Assembly: GCA_000165345.1 (NCBI GenBank)
Contig: CM000429.1
Coordinates: 416,001 to 480,000, forward strand
Direction: 5' to 3'
Length of the DNA stretch: 64,000 nucleotides
Shown here: positions 19,507 to 36,321 of the stretch, one piece after another
Layout: every line of letters starts with the position of its first letter
How positions within the stretch are numbered: the first letter of the stretch is position 1
Translations under genes and position numbers: made by a program
The notes under the pieces: model-generated
Seen by the model: only the letters and a program-made list of their open reading frames with translations
Databases searched by the model: none
What the model was told of the DNA's origin: nothing

Positions 19507-20240
19507 ATGTGCGAAACAACGTTCATTGGGAGAGCTAGCGATGGCCTAATTCTTACTGAGACTTGGGATGATTTAAGCTCCAACAGATCTCTGCAGAGTT
19601 ATAAGCACCAAGCTAAACAAATATTAAAAAGCATCGGGAATGATCAAGGAGTAGAAAAATGTTCTATTGATAGTGGAAATTATGTCTTCCACTACATTGT
19701 AAATGATGGTATTATTTATATGACTTTATCGGGAAAGTCATACCCGAAGAAGTTGGCTTTTTCTTTTCTAGATGAAATAAAAAGGTTATTTATTGAAGAA
19801 CTAGGGAGAGAATTTGCAAATAGAGATGAATTCAAGAGCCTGATTGATGCAATAGATAAGCCGTATTATTTCATAAAGTTTGACCGAATAATTCAACGAT
19901 GCAAATCCGAATATAAGGACCCAAACTCGAACAAGTCGCTACAAAAACTAAATGACTCGCTAATTGAGGTATGTTTACTACTTGTTTTTAACCATAATGC
20001 TCAAAAAAATTAACAATTCAGGTAACTAATATAATGAGAAGAAATGTGGATGATATTTTACTGAGAGGTGAAAATCTTAATGATGTTGAAAGAAAAGCCA
20101 ATGATTTAAAATTTGCATCCCTGGAATTTTCTAGAGCTGCAAAAAAGCTTTCATTGCATGCATTAATTCAAAAATATGCACCAATATTGGCCTTATCGGC
20201 TATAGTTTTGATCATCATTATATGGAAGCTTATTTTATAA
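19507..20240 (+). CDS. SEC22: R-SNARE Sec22 (longin domain, SNARE motif and TM anchor). It has 2 exons, 19507..19968 and 20022..20240, separated by a 53-nt intron.
   Basis: Exon 1 is the longin fold (MCETTFIGRASDGLILTETWDD...YKHQAKQILKSI...NYVFHYIVNDGIIYMTLSGKSYPKKLAFSFLDEI). It ends at GAG|GTATGT (19969). The acceptor is TTCAG (AG 20020-20021). Exon 2 reads VTNIMRRNVDDILLRGENLNDVERKANDLKFASLEFSRAAKKL followed by the TM helix YAPILALSAIVLIIIIW. The spliced frame is continuous. Confidence 0.75.
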
Positions 20241-20433: not shown

Positions 20434-21147
20434 ATGAATTTTATCGTATCCCCAACAGAACAAGAGCTTTACAGCGAGTTAAGTTCTAAATATCCGAGCC
20501 TGCACATTTGCACTCAAACACCACAACTAAAAGGAGTTATGACAATACTTAGAGATGCAAACACTTCAAAAGAAGACTTTGTGTTTTACACAGATAGAAT
20601 ATGTAGAATTGTTCTTGAACATGCTTTAAACCTTCTTCCTTATGATTATAAGGAAATTAAAACCCCAAATGGAATCGAAGTCAAGGGAATTGCATTTAAC
20701 ACTCCCATCTGCGGCGTGAGCCTAATAGGATCTGGTGAAGCGATGGAGAATGCGCTTAGATTTGTATGCAGAGGATGTAGAATAGGGAAGGTGTTATTAA
20801 ATAACTCTTCTGAAAACGAATTTGACAACGCTATTTCTGCAGCATATGTAAAATTACCCGAAGATGTCTCAGAAAGAGTTGTAATCGTAATGAGCCCAGT
20901 GTTAGGAACTGGTAATTCACTATGTTGTTTGATAGAAGTGCTGATAAAGAACAATGTAAAAGAGAAAAATATTATTTGTATGGCACTGCTTTCGTCAAAA
21001 TTAGCAATCGAACGAGTTTTCTCACAATTTCCAGAAATCAGACTTGTAATCTCCTCAATAGATTATAATCTTGATGAAAACATGCAGGTTGTTCCTGGAG
21101 TTGGTAACTTTGGCGATAGATACTTTGGAATTAAATGTAGCAAATAA
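20434..21147 (+). CDS. UPRT: Uracil phosphoribosyltransferase (UPRT) family protein, 237 aa. The PRPP-binding acidic motif is atypical.
   Basis: The ORF is colinear with UPRT: LRDANTSKEDFVFYTDRI, IGSGEAMENALRF (RAGxxM), VVIVMSPVLGTGNS (PRPP loop) and a C-terminal VVPGVGNFGDRYFG (PGLGDAGDRxFG). Ser154 (20893..20895) sits where the conserved Asp of the DPMLATGGS loop is expected. Confidence 0.8.
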   Translation: MNFIVSPTEQELYSELSSKYPSLHICTQTPQLKGVMTILRDANTSKEDFVFYTDRICRIVLEHALNLLPYDYKEIKTPNGIEVKGIAFNTPICGVSLIGSGEAMENALRFVCRGCRIGKVLLNNSSENEFDNAISAAYVKLPEDVSERVVIVMSPVLGTGNSLCCLIEVLIKNNVKEKNIICMALLSSKLAIERVFSQFPEIRLVISSIDYNLDENMQVVPGVGNFGDRYFGIKCSK

Positions 21148-21314: not shown

Positions 21315-22310
21315 ATGAATTTAATAAATAAACTTTACCGAATATATAAGAGAGAAAAAAAGGAGGACTTAAGAATAAGTGACAAAGAAGAGCCATTAAT
21401 AATATCAAAAACAAGAATGGCACTATTAGAACTAGAAATTAAAACTTTAGCTTACATTCTTTCTAGAGAATTAAAAACGAGTTCTCAAATTTCTAATCTA
21501 TCCGAAATCAAATGGGCAGAAATTACCACTGATGACTTGGATAGACTTGAATCCATCTTGTTTGAAAATGTCTACGAAATAGAAATTAACCCGATAGTTA
21601 AGTCATTAATCTCTATTTTGAGAGGACTATTAGATACACGTAACAAGTTTTTTAATGGCAAAGCGATGCCGTTCTATGTAAAATTAAAGAATGAGAATGT
21701 TCAAAGTACATTTATTTTAGAAGAAAGCGTTAATTTTCCATTTAGAAACGATAGATTAATCAAACAATGTGAAAATATAAACTCTAGTAATGCTACTCCA
21801 AAATCATATTTCTCTTCAAGAACCCCAAGAAACCTTCCAGACTTTAATCAAAAGGTAGAATTGCCAATTAAAAGTAGGTCGAACCATATAAATTTAATTT
21901 CTTCAACTCCAAGAAGTACTTCGTGTCAAACACCTAGGACAAAGAATCACATGAAACATACGAATTTAGATTATTCTACACCAAAATCCGAAATAAATAA
22001 AAAAAATTATTATATTTTTAGTGATTCAAATACCCCAAGAAGAAGCTCAAAAACTGGAATTTGTGGCAATTCGAAAATATCTAACAACCAGCAAGGAAGT
22101 ATAATGGCAGCAAAAGCGCTGCTTGGGTTAAGTGTTAATATACCTGCAACTGAGCAAGATATTAGAAAGGCATATTTGAAGGCAGCAATGAAGTGGCATC
22201 CTGATAAGATGAACTCAAGTACAAATGGGAAATCGCATATTTGTTTTACTGCAATTCAAAACGCAATGGAAATATTATTGCAAAATATTTCCAAAAATGG
22301 AGAGGTTTAA
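21315..22310 (+). CDS. DnaJ (J-domain) protein, 331 aa. The J domain is C-terminal, and the N-terminal two-thirds are S/T/P/N-rich.
   Basis: AKALLGLSVNIPATEQDIRKAYLKAAMKWHPDKMNSSTNGKSHICFTAIQNAMEILL gives the helix II-HPD-helix III signature of J domains. Confidence 0.7.
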   Translation: MNLINKLYRIYKREKKEDLRISDKEEPLIISKTRMALLELEIKTLAYILSRELKTSSQISNLSEIKWAEITTDDLDRLESILFENVYEIEINPIVKSLISILRGLLDTRNKFFNGKAMPFYVKLKNENVQSTFILEESVNFPFRNDRLIKQCENINSSNATPKSYFSSRTPRNLPDFNQKVELPIKSRSNHINLISSTPRSTSCQTPRTKNHMKHTNLDYSTPKSEINKKNYYIFSDSNTPRRSSKTGICGNSKISNNQQGSIMAAKALLGLSVNIPATEQDIRKAYLKAAMKWHPDKMNSSTNGKSHICFTAIQNAMEILLQNISKNGEV

Positions 22311-22482: not shown

Positions 22483-25400
22483 ATGGGAAATAATATTGAT
22501 TTAATTACTTATGAACAATCAAATTATGAAGTTAATGAGTTAGATAAGCTGTATTTGCAACTAGGAAATTATATTGGAAGAAAGGATGAAAATATTTATA
22601 TAAGAGAATTATTAAAGTACTTCTTACAAAATTATTATGACTTAAATCCTAATATAATTGAAGATTGGTGGAAGAGGCGCGAACAGCTATTCCTGAGTGT
22701 TGATGAACTAATTTGGAGTAACCCAAAAATGTTTGATGATTCACTTTGTGAACTAAATTTTGCAACTGAAGAAATGAAAACTTTGACAATGACGTCAAAT
22801 ACGAAAAATAAAATTTCCAAATACTTAGAAAAATTAAATTGTATTATTAATGATGAATTTTCAATTGTAGGCAGTTTTAATTGGGAAGAATATATTGGTA
22901 TTAGATTACAATGTTATGTTAACTTGATGATTACATTGAGAAGGCTTCAACTGAAATTATTGGATTATGATAAAAATAATTATTTTGGACTAAATAAACT
23001 ACTATTTAAGACCAATCAATCCAGTGAAGATATTTTTTTTCTTATAAATAAGGTTTTTAATGAAAATTTTGTAAATTTGGAAACTTATACAAAAATTAAT
23101 CAAGTATTTTTGAAACAAAAATTAACAAATAACTTTAAACGGGAAAAATTAAATTTTATACCTGAAGATGAAATTTTGAACCATTTTATGAATTTTACAA
23201 TTCCTAAATCATTAGATGAAATATATAAAAAAAATACTTCAAGTTCCGAAATTGTACTTCTCGTTAGATGTGTTCTTGGATATATTTGGAGCTATTATAA
23301 AGTCATTTTTTTATCAAATGAGTCAGTTCAGAACCAAATTTTTCTTAATGTTGACAATTTATTTCCAAAGGAAATAATTACAGGTACTACAGATAAAAAC
23401 GCTATGTTATGTTTAAGTGAAGTAATAAAAACGCTGTTAATAAATATAATATTCAACTCAATGATTAGTGAATCCAACGAAAACTTGTGTTTACTAGAAG
23501 ATTTAATTAAACTAGTCCTACAGCTTGGAAACAATATTTTATTATCAGTTTGTGAAAATAAAAGCTCAATGAACAAATGCTTTGTTTTTGGAAGTAATAA
23601 AGTAACCAATTCTGATCTCGAAAACAAAAGCTTATTAATGAAAATGCTTGAGAACATGTTTTCTGAAGATGGATTTTTTGTTAGTATAGTTAAAATTTGT
23701 TTGATCGCTATTTCAATATTAACCACAGGAGTTAATCATTTTCTAGCAAAAAATGGGCAGAAAGAGTCAAATGCTAATCAAAACTTAAGTGAAAATTACA
23801 AAAACAATGTAAAAAATTCGCAAAAGTGTAGCTATTTCTCAAATGATATATGTATTATTACAATAATTATGAGATTGGTCAGTGAATGCAAATATTTAAT
23901 GCAACGATTGTGGAATTTATATATGTTTCTATCAAATGAAGTGAATTGTTGCAATTCACCTGATTTAATTAAGGAAGAAATATATTGTTACGGGCCCATG
24001 CAATTTCATTCTTCTCCAAGAAATACCTTTATTGTTGAATTCCATGAAAAACATTCAATCGGCACTATTAATGATTCGCAAAATAAATTAAATAAGAAAT
24101 TTGAATTGGAAGTTCTGGAAAAACATAAATATTATTGGAAGCTTATACGGGTTCAAAATGCTTCTCATATAATTATATTATTTGATAGCAACTGCTCTAC
24201 AGAAAAGAATACGGATATTTTAGAAATTTTTTGGTCACGGGAAAATTATTCAAGTGATAGAATCAATAAAAATTTTAATGATTTAAGATCTCAATATAAT
24301 GAATCTTTATTTGGAAAGCTTTCTGGACCTAAACACTTGTGGCCAAAAAAGCCTACTATTTATGAAGGAAATACGCTATTAGTTGTTTTTCGCACGTCAA
24401 TTGAATCTTTAGATCAAATTAGTGATGATAAGTGGGGATTCAGAATTTATTTCCAATGCCATTATTGGGATCAAGTGATTGAAAATAAAATAAGCCATAA
24501 AATATCTGATAATAAAACAGAATTCAAGCATAGAGAAATATTGCTATATAATCTAAAAGAAGTATTTATTTTTTCTGCTGTTGCTGTTTCATCAAGCTTA
24601 AGTTTTATGTTACGTGGTCCAAACATTAAAAGAATCGAAAGAAACTTCAACGAAATTTTGGATTCTCTACTTTTTGCTGGTGGGTTAGATATAAATTATG
24701 AAAAAGAGTTTCCACATTTTTCCAACTTGAAAAAAAGTGATTTAGTACCTTTTAATACGGGAAATAAAAATTTGGTTACTTTTGCTGACTTCAATTCTCA
24801 TTCAATGGCACTGATCGATTCTAAAAATAGTATGCATGGTTCTTTGCTGAAAAATGGAATAACTCTAGACAAAAAAGTTAATAATGATCTATTTTACAGA
24901 TTTTTACCTAATATTGATGAAATTAAAGACCAAATTATTAATAATTTGCACTGGGGATTCATAGTTAACTTTGTTTTAAGTCTTTCATCTATTATCCACT
25001 ACAATGCAAAAAAAAATCATTTTAATTTATCAATTGAATTAATGAATGACAAAACATTTATGAAAATTGTAAAAAATGATTCAATAACTGCAAGATTTGG
25101 CAGCGAAAAACTTTCAATGGTGGTTAGATCTTATATATCCTGTTATTTGCATCATCTGGGACTTTATTACAATATTTTTCAGCTATGTGAGAGCCTATTT
25201 AATTTTGGTCTTGGTCTAGAGAGAATAATTCAATTGGCTTGGGAATTTTATTCAAATAATAACTTAGAACACATTTATAACGATTTTTTATTTGAATTTA
25301 TAATAAAATTCATACTAAAACAAGAATCTTGCCAACCTCTTTTAAATGTTTGGACACTGGGAAGAAAATTTAGATCTTGGATAATTATGGAAAAACATAA

Positions 25401-28400
25401 AATTGAGATTAATCAGCCAGAAGAAAAAATAATATACGAATCTAGAAACAGTATTGAAACAGATTTTGACGGTTTACTTAAATCTATTATTTGTAATACA
25501 TCTTTAATTCTAAATTTGGTACCTTTTTCTGGAAGTAAGCATGCTTCAATTTACTCTAAAAATGATTTAAATAGGAGCGAAAACTTTATGGATAATCTTT
25601 ACGAAGATGCATCTAATAATTATGATATTGGTGGATCCAAATATGTATTTTATCCAAATAGAAATATATGTTTGGTTTTAGAATCGATAATTGGTTTTAA
25701 TAAGTATGAGTTATTATTGAATAAATGCTATACAGAAAAATCAAAATCGTTAGTGAATTTTGAAAGTAATAAAGATTCAGTTATTGATACCAAATCAAGT
25801 TTCTTAGATTATAATGAATTGGAAAAATTAAATAACAGTCAAGTAATCAGAGAAATCTGTGATGGAATTGAAAATTTAATTAAATCAGCAAACTACTTTG
25901 GAAAAATGAAATATAATGAATCTGAAGAAAGCTTTTTTGGAATGGATACCGTCCTTTGCATTAGGAGATTTCGTGCAATTTCACGCTTTGAAGCATTTAG
26001 AATACTCTCTACTTTGTTTAACGATGAGAATATTAATGAATTTCTTCTCACCTCATTAATTAAAAGCATAAGATCCATGGGTGAGGAGACACTATGTTTT
26101 TCACCAATAAATAATTACAACGAAACTGGAATATTGGAGTCTCATACGCATAATTATCTTTATTTCTCAAGTGAATATTATAAAAAAGATGAAAATCATC
26201 GTACTTTGGAAGTTCATTACTCAGATAACTTGGTTGGATGCGGCAAAAAAGTACAGAAACAGGTTAAGGATGCGTATTTTAAATTGTTACATTCATTAAT
26301 AAATGGTAAAGCAGTAGCTTCAAAAGGAGCTGAGATTTTAAAAATGAGTTTGTTCGCTTATTTTGCATTGAAAAAGGCCGAGAGTTATGATTTTTTAAAA
26401 ACTGGCTTTCCTGATAGAATTCTATACTTAATGACTGGTTGTAACAAGAGCTGTGAATTAGGAAATGAATGCATACCATCAGTTTCACTTGGCCCCTATC
26501 CAGTATTCCTGGTCTATTCAATTATATGTTTAAAATGTTCCCTGCAAGAAAACTCAGCAATTAAGCTATCTTTAATATTTTCTTCATTTGTAGGGCTTTC
26601 TCACTCCATTTCAATATCTGGTGAATTTAAAGGGCAATTGACGTCAAGAGAACTTTGGAGAATTAGCGAGATTTACTTCATGGGAAAAATATTAATTCTC
26701 ACATCAAAAATGACCAATTTTTTGAAAAAAATTGAAATTTCAAAAACAGAACAAAAAATATATTTGGAATATTTTAAATATATTTTTAATAGAAGACATA
26801 ATATTAACTCTTCAATTAAATCTCCCGAATTGATTGATGATTTGTTTGTAAAATTTTTTTATATTAAACCAAGTATTCTTTCTAATATTATTTGCAGAGC
26901 TTTAGATTCAAGTAACCAAATACTACACTTTTACTGTATCAAATTTTTATGGAAATTTCTTCCATTAACTTCGACAAAGGATTTCTTAGAACAATACTCT
27001 CGGAGGTTAATTCCAAATAATTACTTAATAAAGTCTAAAACTCTTGAAAAATTAAACTATATCGATTGCTTTGAAGGCTATTTAGAAAAAATAGGCCAAT
27101 CATTGGTTTTATTTAACAGTTTTGAAGAAGAATCCAAGATTCATCCTCCAGCAGTATTGGTTAATTCTTTAGAAACTGGACTCTTATATTCGTTCAATGA
27201 TCAATTGGGATCTTTATTAGATAATAATAACAGATTTATAAATAATAATGATGACTTTTATAAAAATATAATATTTTTGTTAAGGTTAATTGCATTGTAT
27301 TCAGAAAAGAATGAACAGAAATATAATGAAGTCAGCTTTAAAAAAATAGATCTAGAGCTAATACATATGGGATTTGTCCAATTATTATCCGAACAGATAT
27401 ATAAAATTCCAACTTTGCTTGATTCACTATTAAATCTCGACGAACATTTAAAACTCGAAGAAGTTTATAGATGTATTGGAATGCTTGCTGTAATAATAGA
27501 TGATTATGATTTTGAAACTCATGTTGGAAAACTGATCCATTTTCAAGAAAATCAATTAATTGAAAGTAAGAATGAAATCAGTAAAATGGGGATATTGATT
27601 TCTAATAATCCACTTAAAAAAGAATACTCCATTTTAATTAATGATTTCAAGTCTATTGAAGTAAAGAAATTCTCTTATAACTCTATAAATATATTGAATA
27701 AAACTAATATATCTTTCCCTATGAAATTTATTATTTCTAAATTAAATTTTGATATAATAAAAATAATAACTAGTATATTGAAAATTTCATTTCAATATTT
27801 ATCCAGTTTATCTACAAATATTGATAATTTGGAAAAGTATTTTTCGATAAAAATTATGGAATATGGTGCAACAATTTCAAATTTGGAGAAAAAAAAGCTA
27901 GTTGCTTTACAAATTATTTCGATGAGTTTGAGTTTTATTAATATGTTGATTGACAATGGGTACATTTCTACATTAAACCTCAGCAATGATCGGAATGTAA
28001 ATCAATTAATTGAACTAATAAATGCAATAACTAAGATTGGAATTGTAAATTTGCCGTCTATAAATGAAAAAGATGGAATATCAAGCAATATTTCAATAAT
28101 TTTAAGTAGAAGATTTATTCAACGAACTCTTCAAAAGAATCAATTTTCTAGTTCAGGTTACTACCCAATATTTAAAAAGTCTACTCAAGCGGATTTACTC
28201 AAAAATTCGCCTTATACAAATATTATGCTAACACTTCCAACAAAATGGGAAATTAAGAACCAATGTTTTTATTTTAAAAACAAAAATACAATAATTTTTA
28301 ATATCAATCATCACTTGTTTCAAGATAAAGGAAATTCAACAATGTTTACTGCAAATTGTTATATTCCAACGTTACTTTCCTTTTACTATTTTGAAATTAA

Positions 28401-31400
28401 TTTCTCATTTAGTGATGAAATGCCAAGGCACAACGAACTGAAGACAAATTTTTGTTTTTTGAGTGAATTGGATCTTGCATTCTGTGTTTGTATAGGGTTA
28501 TATAGAGATGGCTGCCAAAAAGGAATTTCGGGTTCATTCGGCAGTTATGCATATAAAAACACAGGAAAACTTGTGCATGGTTGCGATGAGAAAGAATTTA
28601 GTGAACAAAAAGTCGAAAATTTCTGTATTGGAGATACTGTTGGCTGTGGGATTGATTTCACAAATAAAGTTGTATTTTTTACAAAGAATGGTAGGATAAT
28701 TCGTTATCAAAGTAGTCAGTATACTTTTATGCAAGAATCTCTGTGCAAAAAAAAGAGTGATTACCCGAAATTTAACAATGTAATGGGTCATTTCAAGCCT
28801 GCTATTTGGATTGAAAGGTCTAAATATGATTTTGATACAAACAAATATTTGATTGTTAATGCAAATTTTGGTCAAGAATTGTTTAAATATAAATATATTA
28901 ACAAACTCAATTCCAATAACATACTTTCTTTAGAAAATGAAGAATTATCAATTTTCAGAAATAATAGTGAACAATTAACTTTTAATAACTTTCTATGTAA
29001 TAACTATAGTGAATTGAGCAAAGCGGAATTAAATAGAAGAACTTTGGCTTTTGAGTTACATGAAATAATTAATAACGATAATTTTCCATTATCTGTATGT
29101 ATTCATGCATTAGAAAACTGCAAAGATAATTTAGAATTAGCAGCTAATTGGCTATTAGAGAAAAATTTTCAAAATTCAAGTTCAACATCAATACCAAGTG
29201 AATTTCATTTTTCTTCAGATTCAACAAATAGTGGGATAAAAACATGTTCTGATGGAACAAAATGTAATAAAGTAATTTATTCTGAAAAAGAGTATTTAAT
29301 CGACAAATTAATTAGTTCAAAAAACAAAAGCACTGAATATCATTCTAGCAAATATTTTGAGTTAATTAATACTTTTATATTTAATAAGTATAATCAAGAA
29401 TTAAACTTTATCAAAGATAATTACTTTGAAATATCAAAATACTTTCTCATTTTTGGCTCATTTGGAGAAAATCCCCTTCATAGAATTGAGAACTACGTTT
29501 TAACCAATTATTCTCAAAACGTTAATATTCAAAATTATTTATCAGGCGATATTTGGTTTAATTCACAATTTGATTTTCAAGGATATGACAGAAAAAATCT
29601 GCCGAGTGAATTTGTAGAGCAACAAATATCAAATTTAACATTACAACTATTACATAAAAGAAATTCATTTACAGGAGCATCTTTTTCCCAGAAAACAAAA
29701 AAAAACTCTTTCTTACCTGGAACAATAGTTGAAATTGCACAAAATTTTAAATACTGGATATGTGGTGTTGAAGAAAACGATTGTTTTGCTTCAGAAATTA
29801 TCTCAATGAAAAGTATGGGCACTATTATTGATTTAAACAACTCACCCAAATGTAGAATTATTTATTTCTTAAGAAAGCTTTCAAAATTTACAGGGGTTGT
29901 TTGGTCGTGTAGTCAAATTACAAACTCAACATTAGTACAATTTTTTGATTATTACTCGCTTGTTTATTATTTAGTAAATTTACCATCTAATTTTTTAATT
30001 GAAACATCGACTAATATTGGACTTAGCAATGAAAGGGTTACATACAATAAAGGAACAAAGCTTAAGGCATTCCAGGATTACATCGAAAACATTTTTTCAT
30101 CTAACATTCATAACGAAAATGGAAGGACATTTTTTTATGGTAGATTACCACAAGTATTTCACTTATACTTTAAGTTTGAGCTGATTAAATGTATACAATC
30201 AACTAGAGAAGCTATATCAAAGAATTTAAATAAAGTTCATAAGTACTTGTTTGGTCAAAGCAATCATAAGCGTTTAAATTCTCTTGAAAATATTCTCCAA
30301 ATATTTAAATTAGTCTTTGGAAGTAAATGCCCTAAAATTTCTGATTATTTTGTACCCATGTATACGAAGGAAAGATTATTTTCTATATATTATACAAATT
30401 TATTAAATCAAGAAAATATGATTGGCTATACTCGGTTTCTAGAGGAATTTCCAAAGAAAGAGACAATCAAATTTACTGATATTATACTTAGGGAATATAT
30501 TTCAACAATTAAAGCTGGAATTTATTCTGAAATTCCAATTATAAAGATTGAAACTACTCATCCATGTGAATGTTTGATTGACAAAAAATACGATATTTCA
30601 TTTAAGGACTGTGACTATTTTTTTGCGATATTTGATCCGCTTTGCGAAATTAGCTCTGACAATTTGTCGTTTTTTAAAATTACTTTCAATGATTGCTTAG
30701 ACGGGAAAAAAATCACATTATTAAAAGCGACAGGAAGAGGCTTAAGTGGATGTAAACTAGTCATACCAACAAATTTATTTACTATTTACTTGGTAACATC
30801 TTCTCAAAATAACAATAAATATGGTATTAAAGCTTGTTTTATTCCAATGAGATATTCAATAAGCGATTACAAATTAATGGAAAACAAAAATATTCATTTT
30901 TCCTATATATTATTGGATTTAATTCTTAAAAACGTTGGAAATAATATTGATATAACTCATATAAAAAAAATTGTTGAAATATTACTTTTTGTATTGTTTG
31001 AAATACACATTCCCAAACAAATTTACTCATGCAAGCAAATATCCAACAAGAATATCTCATCATTTAGTTCAAAAGAAGAAAAAGTCATTCCGATACAAAA
31101 CTCATTCATTCATATAGTTCAACAATTGATTAATATTTTTATTAAATACCCAGAAGTTATATGTAATATTTCCCAAAAGAGCATTGTTATTTTAGATTAC
31201 TTAAACACATTCTTTAATATTGTTTATCTAATTCAAATGGACCAATTACAAATTGTGACAAACCATGGGAGAAATGTTAATATTAAATATTGCATTATGT
31301 TACAACTGCATTATTTGTTATTTTTTTATAAAAATAATAAAATGGATTTTTTAATAAATAATAAATATTCCCGAGAGTCTAATTTTGGTAAGCTATCAAA

Positions 31401-34400
31401 TTTTACTTTGTCAAAGTTATCTTTAGAGTTACAAATACAACATAATCTTATAGCGGAGTTAAATCTAGCAGTGCATGACTCAAAAATTAAATATTATCAT
31501 AAAAACAAGAATGTTCTATATAATATTCCGGATACAGAAATATATTCTTTAAAAAAATATAATCAAAAAGAAACGGTTTCAAATTTTCTTTTAAATGGAG
31601 ATATTAAAACACACAACTTGATCACTATAGGAAAAAAATCTATTTTTAACTTCTGTAAATGGTATAATATAATTTCAACATCAAATATCTCTATTCAAGC
31701 TTTTATTTCTTCTATAAATTATATATATGCGGAAAAATTTAGAACCGAAAATGAAAATTTCCCAATAAAAAATTTTTATTCCAATAAAGGAAATGACAGT
31801 CATCTATTTGACTTAGAGGAATCTAAAAGTTACTCATATTATTATGAACCCAATACGCCTCTAGTACTTATTGAGAAACTTGGTGAAGTTCAAATATCAA
31901 TTTTAAGCGCAATGATAATCATTCCATTTGAAACAATGAGCTCTAACAATTCAAGTTTATCGATTGACATTTCACAATTTATTAGAGAGTGTTTGGAATT
32001 GATGGATAACAAATTGCTATTACTGCCGAAGAATAGATTACTTTGGCTTAATGACCAAGCTTTAAAAAGTACATTAAGCCAATTTGATCAACCAATTAAA
32101 ATACTGAACAACCCAATTTTAATTGATTATTCTTTAAAGAGGGTTCTTACAGATGAAGTAATTATTTCAAAAAATGTCACTTTTACTTCTAATGATTTGG
32201 TAGTGTTGACAACTTCAACATTAGATGATACTCAGGATAGAGTTAAACTATTATGGGATATATTAATTCATTTAAAAAACAAAGATGACTCAAAATTATT
32301 GTCGAATAATGTAATTACTTGGATGGAAGATTGGGAAGATAAATTTATCTCAACAAAAGTAAAAGATAATGATAGTTTTGATCCTCGAATTTATGTTGAG
32401 TATTTGAATACATATTCGTTTCCAAAAATCAAAAAGAAAGATATATTGGATTCTTCTAAACAGCATGATAAAAAAACAAAATTTAATTCATTACTTGAAT
32501 CTCAACCTATTCAGTTAATGAGAGAATTTTTTGTTAAGTTGTATTCCGAAAGTATTTTTCAAAGAAAATATTGGCCTGTTTTTATAGGCACAATTCCAAT
32601 TTGTGATTTGGAGCCTTCTAACCATTATTCTAGTTCCTCACTAGATTATAATCAGAGACACTCAGAGAATAAATCAATTTGTGATTCCCAATCATTTGTC
32701 TCAAATTTAAGAGAAATGAATGCACCATGCAGTGTTTCATTTTGGCTATTCCCAATCAACCTTGACAAATATCAAGATAAATTTTCAATTTCAAATAATA
32801 AAAAATTTGAAATCTATAAAAATAAAATAAATGGAGACTTTGAAGAGTGCAATTTATTTGAAACAAAAATTTTTGAATATAATAAAGATGGAAAATGGAA
32901 ATTGATTGCATATAGAGGAATCACAGTTTCAACTATTTCATTTTGGATTACAGATATGGGAAACTTAGGTATTATAGTTAATTCACCAAACAAAAATTAT
33001 CCATTAAATCTAATGCTAAATAACAATACTGCTAACAATCATAGTCAAGTTTCAGAGACTCTAACATTTTCGTCGTTTATTCAGAATAAGTCATCAGCTA
33101 TTGAATTCCATACAACAATTATAATATCAAATCGAAAAATTAATTTGGATCAATGGAATCATATTACAGTTACGATTGGTTCTGAAAAAAAAACAGAAAA
33201 TTTTTCTAATTCTAGAATAGATAACAGTTATTCTGTAAAACTTTATATCAATGGTTTGTTTGATGAGTGTAAAAATATTCCAACAGAGAATATTCCCTTG
33301 ATAGGAGGTGATTTACCTTGGATTATTGGTTGTCACAAATATTTAAGAACAGATTCTTTGAATAATTACGTTTCTCAAAGTGCTCAAGATGATTCTTTAA
33401 TAAAAGAAATACCTAATATATTTTTGGGACAGGACATTAGCTCATCTAAGCTTTTAAGGTACTTAGGATCCAATAAAAATTATTTAAAATTGGTAACAGG
33501 GGAACCTTTGTTTGGCCTCGTAGCAAATTTCATTGTAATTCATTTTGAATGGGAAATAGAAAATATTCATGACTATATTAAAAAAACATTTGATGAAATA
33601 TTATTTCAAGACGAATTAGATGAAATGAATAACTCTGAAGATCTATTAAACAACTCAAATCCAAAAATTGCAAGAACATGTTCAAATTCAAAGTTTCGCA
33701 ATTCTTCAAAATACTCTAAAACTCTATTACATGTGTTTTCAAATAATTGGAAGAATAAACCAATTGTTTCTCATTTTAATAATATTTGGCAACAAGAATA
33801 CATCAATATTAAAATTAACTCAAATAAAGAAGTGAAAACAGAAGAAGTAAATAGAGAAAAGGAATTACTAAATATATCGATTCCAAAAATTTTCATGAAT
33901 AATAATATTTTTAATAGAAAAATGCACATTAAATTAGATATAGTCGTATTGGAAAAACTTGAAATTATCAGCTACGAAGAATTGATTAAAAAAAACAGAA
34001 AAACTAAGAGAAGCATGGATAAATGTTCATGCAAAGATTCTCCAATTGACACAATAGTTATTATTGAAAAAAATAACTTTGAAGGCTCCCTATTTGTATT
34101 AAGGTTAAAATACTTAAACAATTTATTTAGTGATTTAGTACTAAATAAACTGAAAAAAGAATTGGATGCTATATTTGAGAGAGAAGTTAGAACTCCCAAT
34201 AATGATTCATTTTCGAATAATGTGAATCATAATCTAAATATTTTGCATGATACGTACTCTAACCATGATATAATTAAAAAATTTGAACATTATTGTAATT
34301 TTAATAGTAAAAATACTAATAATATATTTATTCAAAAGGGAAGTATAGCTGAATATATTGAAAATAAACAAAATACAGAGTTAGAAGAACTAGAAAATAT

Positions 34401-36321
34401 ACAATTTAATGAAATTTCAAGTAAAGAAGTGCATGAAATAATACCTTCAGTTGGTGAATACATTAATTTTTTATTTAATGAAATAAAGTTATCGGAACCA
34501 ATTTTTCCAATACTTAATGATTTAAAACCATCTATATTTGAAGAGAAGGTTGGCTGTCAAAACTGCAAAGTTGTAATTCTTAACTATTTGAATATTTGTA
34601 ATACTATTTTAAAAAGAATTTCGATATTATTTGTCTCCATTTTCAGTTTCATTGAAATAGTATCGCCAAGACCAAGTATTTTCAAGTATTCTTGGTTAAA
34701 AATGACAAGAAGGTATTTGAGTTTATCCTTGAAGGAGGTATTGATTAATTTATGTCTCACAATAACTGAGGATTCAAAAGCTGATGGAAAAGTTAGAGTA
34801 GCCATTAATAGGACAAAATCAATAATAAGAAATAAAGAAATACTATATTTTGATGATCAATTTATATTCGATAGCGTATTTGGCCAACTTTATATTATTC
34901 TGGAAAAAGTGCCCATTTACAGGCTTCGTTGCAAAAAAAGACCTTGGTATGTTATTTATGAGGGCGAAGGTGGAATTGATGCAGGTGGGATATATAGAGA
35001 TTTGTTATCTCACATTTGTCTTGAACTTCAAAGCGATAAATTACCATTATTTGTTGTTTGCCCAAATTCATATGGATACGGAGAAAATCAGTTTTATTTT
35101 GTTCCAAATCCAAGTCTTGGAAAAAAATTTACTTTCAATGACAGTTTTAAAGTTGAAAAAAACACAAATACTAATTTAAAAGATATAAATACCGAAAAAA
35201 AAATTAAATATGGTAATTCTGGAGGCTGCATAAAGTTGATTTACGATTCATTATATACATTCATTGGAAGATTAATGGGAATATCTATCAGAACTCAAAT
35301 TCCATTAAACCTAGATATACCTAATATTATTTGGAAATTAATATTGGGCGAGAGTGTTTCACTAAATGATTTGAAACAAATTGATTGGTATTCTGTTAAA
35401 TTCTATTTAAAGTTAAAACAAATAGAATGTAATTGGAAAAACAGCGATATTAAGGACAAGAGTAGAAAAGGATTAATACTGGAAGAGTTTGATTCACTTC
35501 AATTAAATTGGTCCTGTTTAAATATTAATGGTGAAGTCGTAGAATTAAAACTTGATGGAGAGAAAATACCCGTAAGAATAGATGAGCTCGGAAAATACTG
35601 TAATTTGTTCAAAGAATATAAGCTTGAGAGAGAATTTTTACATGCAACAAATAACATTAGGAAGGGGATTACGGAAATAATTCCTGAAAACATTTTAGAA
35701 TTACAAACTTGTGAAGAACTGGAAAGATTGATTTGCGGAAACCCCTCTTTGGATATCGATGAGTTAAAACAACATACAAAATATACTGGCTATTCTTCAA
35801 ATGACAAAATTATTAATTGGTTTTGGGATGTATTATCGGAATTGACAGTGCTTCAACAACAAATGTTTCTTAGGTTTGTATGGGGAAGAAGCAGACTTCC
35901 AAGCAAAGGAGCTCAGTGGGAGTGCAATATGGAAATAGTCAGAGTTTATGCTTCTGAAAACACAATTCATGGCGGGGGAACTATTGTTGAAAATATTGAT
36001 CGAATACCTAGTTTCTCCAATTTAAATTCAGAAGAGTTTGATTACATAGAAGATGAATTAGAACACGATAATGATCAATTGAACACTGAATTGATCGATC
36101 AAACGTATTTCAGGGAGCAATCAACTTCGAATATCACATCAGGAGATTTATCTGTACATGGAAATAAGGAAGATCATTTACTTCCTACTAGTCATACTTG
36201 TTTTTTCCAATTAGAATTACCCGGATACTCATCTAAAAAAATACTAAAGGAAAAATTATTGTATGCAATTACTGAAGGAGTTGCAATTGACATAGACAAT
36301 GTAGTACTTGATAATAATTAG
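22483..36321 (+). CDS. Giant HECT-type E3 ubiquitin ligase, 4612 aa, encoded as a single uninterrupted exon. It has a long N-terminal helical/low-complexity region, an SPRY domain, a UBA domain and a C-terminal HECT domain.
   Basis: Continuous 13,839-nt ORF. The C-terminus is FLRFVWGRSRLPS...LPTSHTCFFQLELPGYSSKKILKEKLLYAITEG, i.e. the HECT C-lobe with the catalytic Cys in HTCF (codon 36199..36201). Upstream is the N-lobe WYVIYEGEGGIDAGGIYRDLLSHICLELQSD. Confidence 0.9.
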   Translation: MGNNIDLITYEQSNYEVNELDKLYLQLGNYIGRKDENIYIRELLKYFLQNYYDLNPNIIEDWWKRREQLFLSVDELIWSNPKMFDDSLCELNFATEEMKTLTMTSNTKNKISKYLEKLNCIINDEFSIVGSFNWEEYIGIRLQCYVNLMITLRRLQLKLLDYDKNNYFGLNKLLFKTNQSSEDIFFLINKVFNENFVNLETYTKINQVFLKQKLTNNFKREKLNFIPEDEILNHFMNFTIPKSLDEIYKKNTSSSEIVLLVRCVLGYIWSYYKVIFLSNESVQNQIFLNVDNLFPKEIITGTTDKNAMLCLSEVIKTLLINIIFNSMISESNENLCLLEDLIKLVLQLGNNILLSVCENKSSMNKCFVFGSNKVTNSDLENKSLLMKMLENMFSEDGFFVSIVKICLIAISILTTGVNHFLAKNGQKESNANQNLSENYKNNVKNSQKCSYFSNDICIITIIMRLVSECKYLMQRLWNLYMFLSNEVNCCNSPDLIKEEIYCYGPMQFHSSPRNTFIVEFHEKHSIGTINDSQNKLNKKFELEVLEKHKYYWKLIRVQNASHIIILFDSNCSTEKNTDILEIFWSRENYSSDRINKNFNDLRSQYNESLFGKLSGPKHLWPKKPTIYEGNTLLVVFRTSIESLDQISDDKWGFRIYFQCHYWDQVIENKISHKISDNKTEFKHREILLYNLKEVFIFSAVAVSSSLSFMLRGPNIKRIERNFNEILDSLLFAGGLDINYEKEFPHFSNLKKSDLVPFNTGNKNLVTFADFNSHSMALIDSKNSMHGSLLKNGITLDKKVNNDLFYRFLPNIDEIKDQIINNLHWGFIVNFVLSLSSIIHYNAKKNHFNLSIELMNDKTFMKIVKNDSITARFGSEKLSMVVRSYISCYLHHLGLYYNIFQLCESLFNFGLGLERIIQLAWEFYSNNNLEHIYNDFLFEFIIKFILKQESCQPLLNVWTLGRKFRSWIIMEKHKIEINQPEEKIIYESRNSIETDFDGLLKSIICNTSLILNLVPFSGSKHASIYSKNDLNRSENFMDNLYEDASNNYDIGGSKYVFYPNRNICLVLESIIGFNKYELLLNKCYTEKSKSLVNFESNKDSVIDTKSSFLDYNELEKLNNSQVIREICDGIENLIKSANYFGKMKYNESEESFFGMDTVLCIRRFRAISRFEAFRILSTLFNDENINEFLLTSLIKSIRSMGEETLCFSPINNYNETGILESHTHNYLYFSSEYYKKDENHRTLEVHYSDNLVGCGKKVQKQVKDAYFKLLHSLINGKAVASKGAEILKMSLFAYFALKKAESYDFLKTGFPDRILYLMTGCNKSCELGNECIPSVSLGPYPVFLVYSIICLKCSLQENSAIKLSLIFSSFVGLSHSISISGEFKGQLTSRELWRISEIYFMGKILILTSKMTNFLKKIEISKTEQKIYLEYFKYIFNRRHNINSSIKSPELIDDLFVKFFYIKPSILSNIICRALDSSNQILHFYCIKFLWKFLPLTSTKDFLEQYSRRLIPNNYLIKSKTLEKLNYIDCFEGYLEKIGQSLVLFNSFEEESKIHPPAVLVNSLETGLLYSFNDQLGSLLDNNNRFINNNDDFYKNIIFLLRLIALYSEKNEQKYNEVSFKKIDLELIHMGFVQLLSEQIYKIPTLLDSLLNLDEHLKLEEVYRCIGMLAVIIDDYDFETHVGKLIHFQENQLIESKNEISKMGILISNNPLKKEYSILINDFKSIEVKKFSYNSINILNKTNISFPMKFIISKLNFDIIKIITSILKISFQYLSSLSTNIDNLEKYFSIKIMEYGATISNLEKKKLVALQIISMSLSFINMLIDNGYISTLNLSNDRNVNQLIELINAITKIGIVNLPSINEKDGISSNISIILSRRFIQRTLQKNQFSSSGYYPIFKKSTQADLLKNSPYTNIMLTLPTKWEIKNQCFYFKNKNTIIFNINHHLFQDKGNSTMFTANCYIPTLLSFYYFEINFSFSDEMPRHNELKTNFCFLSELDLAFCVCIGLYRDGCQKGISGSFGSYAYKNTGKLVHGCDEKEFSEQKVENFCIGDTVGCGIDFTNKVVFFTKNGRIIRYQSSQYTFMQESLCKKKSDYPKFNNVMGHFKPAIWIERSKYDFDTNKYLIVNANFGQELFKYKYINKLNSNNILSLENEELSIFRNNSEQLTFNNFLCNNYSELSKAELNRRTLAFELHEIINNDNFPLSVCIHALENCKDNLELAANWLLEKNFQNSSSTSIPSEFHFSSDSTNSGIKTCSDGTKCNKVIYSEKEYLIDKLISSKNKSTEYHSSKYFELINTFIFNKYNQELNFIKDNYFEISKYFLIFGSFGENPLHRIENYVLTNYSQNVNIQNYLSGDIWFNSQFDFQGYDRKNLPSEFVEQQISNLTLQLLHKRNSFTGASFSQKTKKNSFLPGTIVEIAQNFKYWICGVEENDCFASEIISMKSMGTIIDLNNSPKCRIIYFLRKLSKFTGVVWSCSQITNSTLVQFFDYYSLVYYLVNLPSNFLIETSTNIGLSNERVTYNKGTKLKAFQDYIENIFSSNIHNENGRTFFYGRLPQVFHLYFKFELIKCIQSTREAISKNLNKVHKYLFGQSNHKRLNSLENILQIFKLVFGSKCPKISDYFVPMYTKERLFSIYYTNLLNQENMIGYTRFLEEFPKKETIKFTDIILREYISTIKAGIYSEIPIIKIETTHPCECLIDKKYDISFKDCDYFFAIFDPLCEISSDNLSFFKITFNDCLDGKKITLLKATGRGLSGCKLVIPTNLFTIYLVTSSQNNNKYGIKACFIPMRYSISDYKLMENKNIHFSYILLDLILKNVGNNIDITHIKKIVEILLFVLFEIHIPKQIYSCKQISNKNISSFSSKEEKVIPIQNSFIHIVQQLINIFIKYPEVICNISQKSIVILDYLNTFFNIVYLIQMDQLQIVTNHGRNVNIKYCIMLQLHYLLFFYKNNKMDFLINNKYSRESNFGKLSNFTLSKLSLELQIQHNLIAELNLAVHDSKIKYYHKNKNVLYNIPDTEIYSLKKYNQKETVSNFLLNGDIKTHNLITIGKKSIFNFCKWYNIISTSNISIQAFISSINYIYAEKFRTENENFPIKNFYSNKGNDSHLFDLEESKSYSYYYEPNTPLVLIEKLGEVQISILSAMIIIPFETMSSNNSSLSIDISQFIRECLELMDNKLLLLPKNRLLWLNDQALKSTLSQFDQPIKILNNPILIDYSLKRVLTDEVIISKNVTFTSNDLVVLTTSTLDDTQDRVKLLWDILIHLKNKDDSKLLSNNVITWMEDWEDKFISTKVKDNDSFDPRIYVEYLNTYSFPKIKKKDILDSSKQHDKKTKFNSLLESQPIQLMREFFVKLYSESIFQRKYWPVFIGTIPICDLEPSNHYSSSSLDYNQRHSENKSICDSQSFVSNLREMNAPCSVSFWLFPINLDKYQDKFSISNNKKFEIYKNKINGDFEECNLFETKIFEYNKDGKWKLIAYRGITVSTISFWITDMGNLGIIVNSPNKNYPLNLMLNNNTANNHSQVSETLTFSSFIQNKSSAIEFHTTIIISNRKINLDQWNHITVTIGSEKKTENFSNSRIDNSYSVKLYINGLFDECKNIPTENIPLIGGDLPWIIGCHKYLRTDSLNNYVSQSAQDDSLIKEIPNIFLGQDISSSKLLRYLGSNKNYLKLVTGEPLFGLVANFIVIHFEWEIENIHDYIKKTFDEILFQDELDEMNNSEDLLNNSNPKIARTCSNSKFRNSSKYSKTLLHVFSNNWKNKPIVSHFNNIWQQEYINIKINSNKEVKTEEVNREKELLNISIPKIFMNNNIFNRKMHIKLDIVVLEKLEIISYEELIKKNRKTKRSMDKCSCKDSPIDTIVIIEKNNFEGSLFVLRLKYLNNLFSDLVLNKLKKELDAIFEREVRTPNNDSFSNNVNHNLNILHDTYSNHDIIKKFEHYCNFNSKNTNNIFIQKGSIAEYIENKQNTELEELENIQFNEISSKEVHEIIPSVGEYINFLFNEIKLSEPIFPILNDLKPSIFEEKVGCQNCKVVILNYLNICNTILKRISILFVSIFSFIEIVSPRPSIFKYSWLKMTRRYLSLSLKEVLINLCLTITEDSKADGKVRVAINRTKSIIRNKEILYFDDQFIFDSVFGQLYIILEKVPIYRLRCKKRPWYVIYEGEGGIDAGGIYRDLLSHICLELQSDKLPLFVVCPNSYGYGENQFYFVPNPSLGKKFTFNDSFKVEKNTNTNLKDINTEKKIKYGNSGGCIKLIYDSLYTFIGRLMGISIRTQIPLNLDIPNIIWKLILGESVSLNDLKQIDWYSVKFYLKLKQIECNWKNSDIKDKSRKGLILEEFDSLQLNWSCLNINGEVVELKLDGEKIPVRIDELGKYCNLFKEYKLEREFLHATNNIRKGITEIIPENILELQTCEELERLICGNPSLDIDELKQHTKYTGYSSNDKIINWFWDVLSELTVLQQQMFLRFVWGRSRLPSKGAQWECNMEIVRVYASENTIHGGGTIVENIDRIPSFSNLNSEEFDYIEDELEHDNDQLNTELIDQTYFREQSTSNITSGDLSVHGNKEDHLLPTSHTCFFQLELPGYSSKKILKEKLLYAITEGVAIDIDNVVLDNN
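28340..28890 (+). other. SPRY (B30.2-like) domain within the giant HECT ligase, about aa 1954-2136.
   Basis: ...GLYRDGCQKGISGSFGSYAYKNTGKLVHGCDEKEFSEQKVENFCIGDTVGCGIDFTNKVVFFTKNGRII... matches the SPRY C-terminal consensus (GDVIGCxxDxxxxxxxFxKNG). Confidence 0.65.
29015..29175 (+). other. UBA (ubiquitin-associated) domain within the giant HECT ligase, about aa 2178-2231.
   Basis: ELNRRTLAFELHEIINNDNFPLSVCIHALENCKDNLELAANWLLEKNF gives the three-helix UBA pattern with conserved hydrophobics and a G/N turn, ending in an xxWLLE helix. Confidence 0.5.
34840..36318 (+). other. HECT catalytic domain (N-lobe with inserts, and C-lobe) of the giant ligase.
   Basis: See the parent CDS. The active-site Cys codon TGT is at 36199..36201. 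The four residues after it are SKKI...; the protein ends ...AIDIDNVVLDNN. Confidence 0.85.

Follow-up and report, generated by a model that had tools for sequence, protein, structure and literature searches.

A conserved Cryptosporidium protein of the uracil phosphoribosyltransferase family is changed at five predicted active-site positions and is probably a pseudoenzyme

Cryptosporidium lacks pyrimidine synthesis and depends on salvage, and this dependence makes its salvage enzymes drug-target candidates. The closest described relatives of the protein studied here are the standalone uracil phosphoribosyltransferases (UPRTs) of Toxoplasma gondii (TgUPRT; 1bd3, 1upf, 1jlr) and of fungi (Fur1; Candida albicans, 7rh8), both of which keep five residues that matter throughout this analysis, namely (in TgUPRT numbering and with their motif context) R112 in VRAG, R137 and D138 in QRD, D164 in LLDPM and D235 in GDFGDR. 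In the M. tuberculosis enzyme, R77 (RAG) and R102 (QRD) have been assigned to PRPP binding, and R102 together with D198, which is equivalent to D200 of Bacillus caldolyticus UPRT and to TgUPRT D235, has been assigned to catalysis (PMC3570474). In the 1UPF structure the OD1 atom of D235 lies 3.2 Å from O2 of the base, and the 5-FU contacts made by Y227, I229, G234 and F236 are main-chain contacts within the C-terminal uracil-binding segment (PMC10970046). We used the 1UPF contacts reported there (M166, A168, Y227, I229, G234, D235 and F236) to anchor the TgUPRT numbering. According to work cited in PMC3570474, binding of GTP leads TgUPRT to form more active tetramers.

Degenerate UPRT homologues are already known as a kind. 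Animal UPRT homologues (human UPRT and the Drosophila protein Krishah, or Kri) have lost the Asp of the PRPP loop, and their catalytic status is disputed: human UPRT is inactive in vitro, while the fly gene is needed for growth and incorporation of 4-thiouracil supported by Kri in vivo has been reported (PMC4536494). In UCKL1 and the UK-UPRTs, the UPRT domain is C-terminal to a uridine kinase (UK) domain (PF00485). Elsewhere among the type I phosphoribosyltransferases (PRTases), T. brucei APRT2 and S. cerevisiae APT2 are paralogues that have been retained although they show no detectable phosphoribosyl transfer (PMC8836349).

The gene considered here, cgd1_1900 of C. parvum, is likewise already known as an annotated gene, and its locus is used in the literature as a convenient site for inserting reporters. 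Wilke et al. replaced it by mCherry to obtain a reporter strain, and Kimball et al. found the knockout to be viable with reduced selfing success, suggesting a growth or developmental defect, although growth of the clonal knockout was described as 'relatively normal' (PMC11213348). In the current literature cgd1_1900 figures as one of "two UPRT enzymes", and the knockout is held to survive because the second copy is redundant with it. Pyrimidine salvage has also been probed by a pooled CRISPR screen in mice that targeted 11 genes (PMC12368253). In its two screens the fold enrichment of cgd1_1900 was -8.15 and -7.37, a depletion of the knockout similar to that of ribonucleotide reductase (-9.9 and -8.0); the UK-UPRT gene cgd8_2810 gave -9.2 and -6.6, and TK, DHFR-TS and dCMP deaminase gave positive values (PMC12368253). 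In the open-access literature we found neither a UPRT enzyme assay for cgd1_1900 nor any earlier statement that a Cryptosporidium UPRT lacks catalytic residues or is inactive, nor any useful published data on how Cryptosporidium uses uracil or 5-FU.

We analysed a 64-kb stretch of DNA (henceforth the window) with a G+C content of ~30%. The product of the plus-strand reading frame at 20434..21147 is identical to EAK88408.1 of C. parvum Iowa II, gene cgd1_1900, which is annotated as "Fur1p like uracil phosphoribosyltransferase". The gene can be equated with the cgd1_1900 of the genetic literature because the window, from ~20721 on, agrees with the CRISPR homology arm published as "cgd1_1900_319" (in which two T's are dropped) and because the locus has been placed on chromosome 1 at 436,349-437,147 (PMC11213348). 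Its relevant features are as follows.

20434..21147, plus strand: coding sequence of cgd1_1900, a UPRT-fold protein; complete, single exon, 237 aa plus stop (ORF list)
20728..20730, plus strand: Gly99 (GGA), at the site of the (I/V)RAG Arg, i.e., TgUPRT R112 and M. tuberculosis R77 (alignments)
20803..20808, plus strand: Asn124-Ser125, at the site of the IQRDE Arg-Asp, i.e., TgUPRT R137-D138 and M. tuberculosis R102 (alignments)
20878..20919, plus strand: what is left of a type I PRTase PRPP loop, VVIVMSPVLGTGNS, residues 149-162 (alignments)
20893..20895, plus strand: Ser154 (AGC), at the site of the PRPP-loop Asp, TgUPRT D164 (ungapped alignments)
21094..21129, plus strand: C-terminal uracil-binding motif PGVGNFGDRYFG, residues 221-232; full length, no deletion
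21106..21108, plus strand: Asn225 (AAC), at the site of the proposed catalytic Asp, TgUPRT D235 (alignments)

Pfam profile PF14681 (UPRTase) matched cgd1_1900 with an E-value of 6.5e-61 and a score of 205.8 bits (cut-off 27 bits) over profile positions 2-205 of 206. The top solved relatives were TgUPRT 1bd3/1upf (E about 1e-63 to 3e-63), and C. albicans Fur1 (7rh8) was matched at an E-value of 7e-52. An AlphaFold2 (AF2) model of the protein (pLDDT 89.8) was compared with solved structures using Foldseek: it superposed on TgUPRT 1jlr_A with a TM-score of 0.93 and an rmsd of 1.3 Å, and the top 27 matches were all UPRTs. With TgUPRT and Fur1 (TM-score 0.84 for the latter) the protein thus shares family, length, fold and a standalone single-domain architecture, at 42-43% identity over the structural alignment. 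These comparisons place cgd1_1900 in the UPRTase family over its full length, in agreement with an earlier note, made from the DNA sequence alone, that read the protein as UPRT-like from end to end. Within the family it is nearest to the canonical standalone UPRTs of apicomplexans and fungi. The same note had described standalone UPRTs of apicomplexans as divergent, which is not true in general: the T. gondii enzyme is canonical and active, has been solved and is the top PDB match. We also considered a regulatory PRTase of the PyrR type and rejected it, since the fold is closer to TgUPRT (PyrR 4p86_C reached a TM-score of only 0.40).

The PRPP loop of cgd1_1900 retains its 5'-phosphate-binding part (T159, G160 and S162), and the pattern M.PV..TG.S is invariant across seven Cryptosporidium species. 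Its acidic residue is missing. In HMMER alignments with five solved UPRTs, whose loop consensus is (L/V)(L/V)DPM and which align without gaps from residue ~136 to the C-terminus of cgd1_1900, S154 pairs with the LLDPM-type Asp of 1bd3/1upf, 7rh8, B. caldolyticus 1i5e and Thermus 1v9s. MAFFT and hmmalign place S154 identically, and in the AF2 model it comes right after the strand formed by residues 149-153, as the start of a PRPP loop should. A gap adjustment that would bring an acidic residue into the loop was rejected, all three methods being ungapped there. The replacement of the loop Asp by Ser154, pointed out in the earlier note, therefore stands, and alignment with characterised UPRTs recovers no Asp or Glu at the loop. 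Across 174 representatives from outside Cryptosporidium, 85% have Asp or Glu in this column. Ser154 is not a sequencing error, because AGC is at least two base changes away from GAY and because the loss of the loop Asp is common to several species (C. hominis, C. meleagridis, C. tyzzeri, C. ubiquitum, C. canis and others). By contrast, the GNS found in place of GGS, which had been listed as a second defect of the loop, has to be struck off: Asn occurs in this column in 20% of family representatives, including UK-UPRTs that retain the loop Asp, and by this comparison GNS is a normal variant of the family.

The alignments indicate that the damage to the active site was at first understated, as five PRPP-binding or catalytic positions are changed and not one. 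Specifically, at the positions of TgUPRT R112, R137, D138, D164 and D235, all kept by TgUPRT and Fur1, cgd1_1900 has G, N, S, S and N. An Arg is present at the RAG position in 94% of representatives, and Gly99 takes its place. Asn124-Ser125 lies at the base of a hairpin whose tip (residues 127-131) is modelled with low confidence. Asn225 replaces the proposed catalytic Asp inside PGVGNFGDRYFG, so that the C-terminal motif, previously taken to be intact, is complete in length only. The parts retained are those that contact uracil through the main chain or hold the 5'-phosphate, and they are the same in TgUPRT, Fur1 and cgd1_1900. The main-chain uracil pocket VVPGVGNF is kept; the VVPGVGNFGDRYFG segment, whose TgUPRT counterpart contributes its main chain to the uracil pocket, is full length and invariant in the genus; and PG.GNFGDRYFG is invariant across the seven Cryptosporidium species.

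The frequency of such changes was assessed by searching 1.84 billion representative proteins, aligning the best 150 together with earlier matches, and scoring the five positions. Among the 155 sequences from outside Cryptosporidium that cover all five, 40 have every canonical residue, nine have four positions changed and none has all five changed. In the intestinal Cryptosporidium species, five of five are changed. Judged from these alignments, catalytic degeneration in the UPRT family looks far commoner than the literature consulted implies. A degenerate eukaryotic class of the UCKL1 type reads RTNDN at the five positions (the RTNDND class), and a degenerate class of animal UPRT homologues reads RSDYH (the RSDYHQ class) and has a two-residue deletion in the C-terminal motif. 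The nearest relatives of the Cryptosporidium proteins outside the genus are canonical, namely TgUPRT and P0040 (45% identity, key pattern RRDDDD), and for this reason the losses in Cryptosporidium appear to be independent of those in the animal class. We regard cgd1_1900 as an extreme and apparently independent case of catalytic-residue loss in the family. The surveyed sequences are mostly eukaryotic and include several lineages with four losses (e.g., P0079, P0126, P0184 and P0187), some of them fused to a uridine kinase.

Likeness to the two degenerate classes is partial in both cases. The animal class has Tyr at the loop Asp position in its representatives, a residue also found there in C. 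serpentis, but it retains the RAG Arg and the Asp that follows the QRD Arg position, neither of which is retained by cgd1_1900. In addition, its C-terminal motif (AP--THFGQKYFG) has two residues deleted, whereas PGVGNFGDRYFG is undeleted, and membership of cgd1_1900 in the animal subfamily was rejected on this ground. The C-terminal domain of UCKL1 and the UK-UPRTs of the RTNDND class shares with cgd1_1900 the loss of the QRD Arg and the sequence GNFGDRYFG, with Asn at the position of TgUPRT D235, and some plant and algal UK-UPRTs also share PVLGTGN(S/T). However, these proteins have the N-terminal kinase domain, and neither the RAG Arg nor the loop Asp has been lost from them; cgd1_1900 lacks all three. 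A UK-UPRT/UCKL1 fusion was rejected because the protein has 237 aa with PF14681 only and the window contains no UK-like sequence; no second UPRT or UK domain was found within its 64 kb.

We then compared the locus across the genus. The order of Sec22-like SNARE, UPRT-like and DnaJ genes is conserved in six species besides C. parvum (C. meleagridis, C. canis, C. felis, C. xiaoi, C. serpentis and the SRR31860986 assembly), the UPRT-like reading frame is intact in all seven, and 117 of its 237 residues are invariant among them. Between C. parvum and C. meleagridis the dN/dS ratio (Nei-Gojobori) is 0.065 for the UPRT-like gene (dS 0.22, unsaturated) versus 0.185 for the DnaJ neighbour; this is the only pair that yields a firm ratio, as dS is saturated for most distant pairs. 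The other usable pairs give 0.047-0.077 for the UPRT-like gene, values that are near saturation and indicative only, and 0.11-0.36 for DnaJ. Hence cgd1_1900 is under strong purifying selection. The degenerate status of a widely used Cryptosporidium "UPRT" that is still under such selection appears to have gone unrecognised so far.

The changed positions themselves differ in how uniform they are. At codon 154 the parvum group has AGC (Ser), whereas C. felis and C. xiaoi have AAY (Asn) and C. serpentis has TAT (Tyr); each of these is a single step away from another variant or from GAY, and the neighbouring residues of the loop are invariant. Positions 123-131 differ among species in both sequence and length. 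Asn225 is fixed in 7/7 species. Position 99 is Gly in all species except C. serpentis, which has Arg (AGA). This distribution indicates that the losses at the positions of TgUPRT R137, D138, D164 and D235 are older than the diversification of the genus, and, because C. serpentis retains Arg, that loss of the RAG Arg was a later event within the intestinal lineage.

Taken together, we think that cgd1_1900 is probably a UPRT-fold pseudoenzyme that no longer converts uracil and PRPP to UMP, at least not at a useful rate. The protein has lost the residues with which canonical UPRTs grip PRPP at its pyrophosphate, Mg and ribose end (the RAG Arg, the QRD Arg-Asp and the loop Asp), together with the Asp proposed to activate uracil, and we infer the loss of catalysis from their absence and from the fact that position 154 is not fixed to one residue. 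The TG.S loop for the 5'-phosphate and the uracil pocket formed by the main chain are retained, and the protein may have been preserved for a non-catalytic role that relies on this old pocket or on the oligomer interfaces. Most likely, that role would be to bind a pyrimidine ligand, be it uracil, UMP or a nucleotide effector, or to act as the regulatory partner of another salvage enzyme; since selection preserves the pocket-lining segments, ligand binding or partner assembly is the likeliest retained property. The earlier note had proposed a dead or repurposed UPRT paralogue, and that core is strengthened by the five changes, the purifying selection and the cost of the knockout, while what it said about the C-terminal motif, GNS and divergence needs correcting. 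A 'repurposed' protein is favoured over a 'decaying' one by the strength of the selection acting on the gene and by the cost that published work reports for the knockout.

Regulatory pairing with the UK-UPRT cgd8_2810 is an attractive possibility that we offer as a hypothesis only. In a more specific form, which we hold tentatively and consider unlikely, cgd1_1900 would be a prozyme-like or sensor subunit that binds a pyrimidine ligand and controls cgd8_2810, and in a stronger version neither of the two Cryptosporidium UPRT domains would be catalytic. The UK-UPRT would be the main entry point for pyrimidines under the prozyme or sensor reading, and the stronger version, if true, would mean that Cryptosporidium salvages no uracil and takes up nucleosides only. 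Either version would change metabolic models, the reasoning behind drug targets and the use of the locus as a 'neutral' insertion site. The comparison with T. brucei APRT2 goes only part of the way, as in this inactive paralogue the type I PRPP motif (VLIVDDFIGTGST) is still intact and its authors thought a prozyme role unlikely (PMC8836349), whereas the motif of cgd1_1900 is broken.

Counter-evidence to a pseudoenzyme comes from Drosophila Kri, a member of the RSDYHQ class that lacks the loop Asp and is nevertheless reported to be functional, a result by which sequence-based calls of inactivity in the UPRT family have been challenged before. In line with arguments made about the animal homologues, cgd1_1900 could be a working UPRT that binds PRPP via other residues, a bound cofactor or a partner. 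The reported Kri activity in vivo without the loop Asp, the retained uracil pocket and 5'-phosphate loop, and the annotation of the gene as an enzyme throughout the field all agree with this, and strong purifying selection together with a fitness cost is what one would expect of an enzyme in a salvage-dependent parasite. We nonetheless consider it unlikely. Five canonical positions are changed, including both PRPP-binding Arg residues and the proposed catalytic Asp, and cgd1_1900 is short of more residues than Kri or human UPRT, the latter being the nearest precedent and inactive in vitro. Moreover, the alignment leaves no shift by which the loop could gain an acidic residue, and a position that is Ser, Asn or Tyr depending on the species does not behave like a catalytic residue.

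The fold might instead have acquired a different catalytic activity, with another nucleobase, nucleotide or phosphoribosyl donor as substrate, which would be compatible with strongly conserved pocket-lining segments combined with the loss of PRPP-specific residues. Yet the changed positions carry no new conserved acidic or basic cluster, positions 123-131 and 154 differ between species, and UPRT is the best family match in Pfam, in the PDB and in the fold search, so that a change of chemistry strikes us as quite improbable. Hardly credible is the idea that the gene is a decaying, non-functional relic, a pseudogene in the making. It is true that the catalytic residues are gone and that a clonal knockout is viable, but the reading frame is intact in seven species within a conserved gene order, the dN/dS of about 0.05-0.07 is below that of DnaJ, invariant positions number 117 of 237, and the knockout is depleted in vivo. 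The pseudogene reading was rejected on dN/dS and synteny. The fitness cost of the knockout could in part stem from disturbed neighbouring genes or from differences in guide efficiency within the pooled screen. Only 193 bp separate cgd1_1900 from Sec22 and 167 bp from DnaJ, and with gaps this short, cassettes inserted at the locus may disturb either neighbour, including the DnaJ promoter.

If cgd1_1900 is indeed a non-enzyme, uracil salvage in Cryptosporidium would run through the UK-UPRT alone or be absent, the knockout phenotype would not be explained by redundancy, the fitness cost in vivo would speak for a regulatory function that has been overlooked, and reporter strains of the delta-uprt type would not be neutral backgrounds. 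The gene would then also be an independent protist case of a loss of catalysis that has recurred among eukaryotic members of the UPRT family. The type of system is not new; its relevance is to specialists in Cryptosporidium metabolism and genetics.

The search for a second UPRT-domain gene, which the earlier note had proposed as a check, leads to the UK-UPRT cgd8_2810 (AAS47700) on chromosome 8. Its published CRISPR arm lies at nt 291, inside the kinase domain and outside the UPRT motifs. When P0187, the most AT-biased UK-UPRT representative, was used as a query, only three plant UKL proteins were matched, and in a profile search with 39 UK-UPRT sequences the named proteins among the best 120 of 1509 matches were all from plants. 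The UPRT domain of a plant UK-UPRT was reportedly active in the hands of Islam et al. (2007), which conflicts with later work on Arabidopsis UKL1/2, where UPRT activity is said to be absent.

The genes around cgd1_1900 in the window are all on the plus strand. Upstream lies a Sec22-like R-SNARE (longin plus synaptobrevin) with exons at 19507..19968 and 20022..20240; the intron between them (19969..20021) is 53 nt long with GT..AG ends, and the exons, which are in frame with each other, together encode 226 aa, as annotated for the orthologues. Downstream, at 21315..22310, is the DnaJ gene (331 aa, with a C-terminal DnaJ domain); at a dN/dS of 0.11-0.36, its rate of evolution is several times that of the UPRT-like gene. 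DnaJ is followed at 22483..36321 by a single 4612-aa reading frame encoding a HECT (plus SPRY) ubiquitin ligase, whose position downstream of DnaJ is conserved in most species examined, i.e., in five of the six others. The exception is C. xiaoi (JAWDEY010000036.1, locus L002, 6919..8738), where a gene of the WD40/CAF1C type and a Mog1 gene stand where HECT is expected, which reflects either a break in synteny or an assembly join.

Several database entries for the orthologues deserve comment. Cryptosporidium-like assemblies (the Logan assembly L006, SRR31860986_1377, and those of proteins P0003 and P0004) contain orthologues with 83-87% identity in which all five changes are present. The gene call in L006 has an N-terminal extension of 53 codons, which probably reflects an over-extended start. 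In C. felis (JABXOJ010000023.1, locus L005, 3001..4604), the 408-aa GenBank model P0005, named 'putative uracil phosphoribosyltransferase FUR1', joins exon 1 of Sec22 to the UPRT-like reading frame; the fusion is probably an annotation artefact, because the UPRT-like frame has its own Met, aligns separately and spans ~233 aa.
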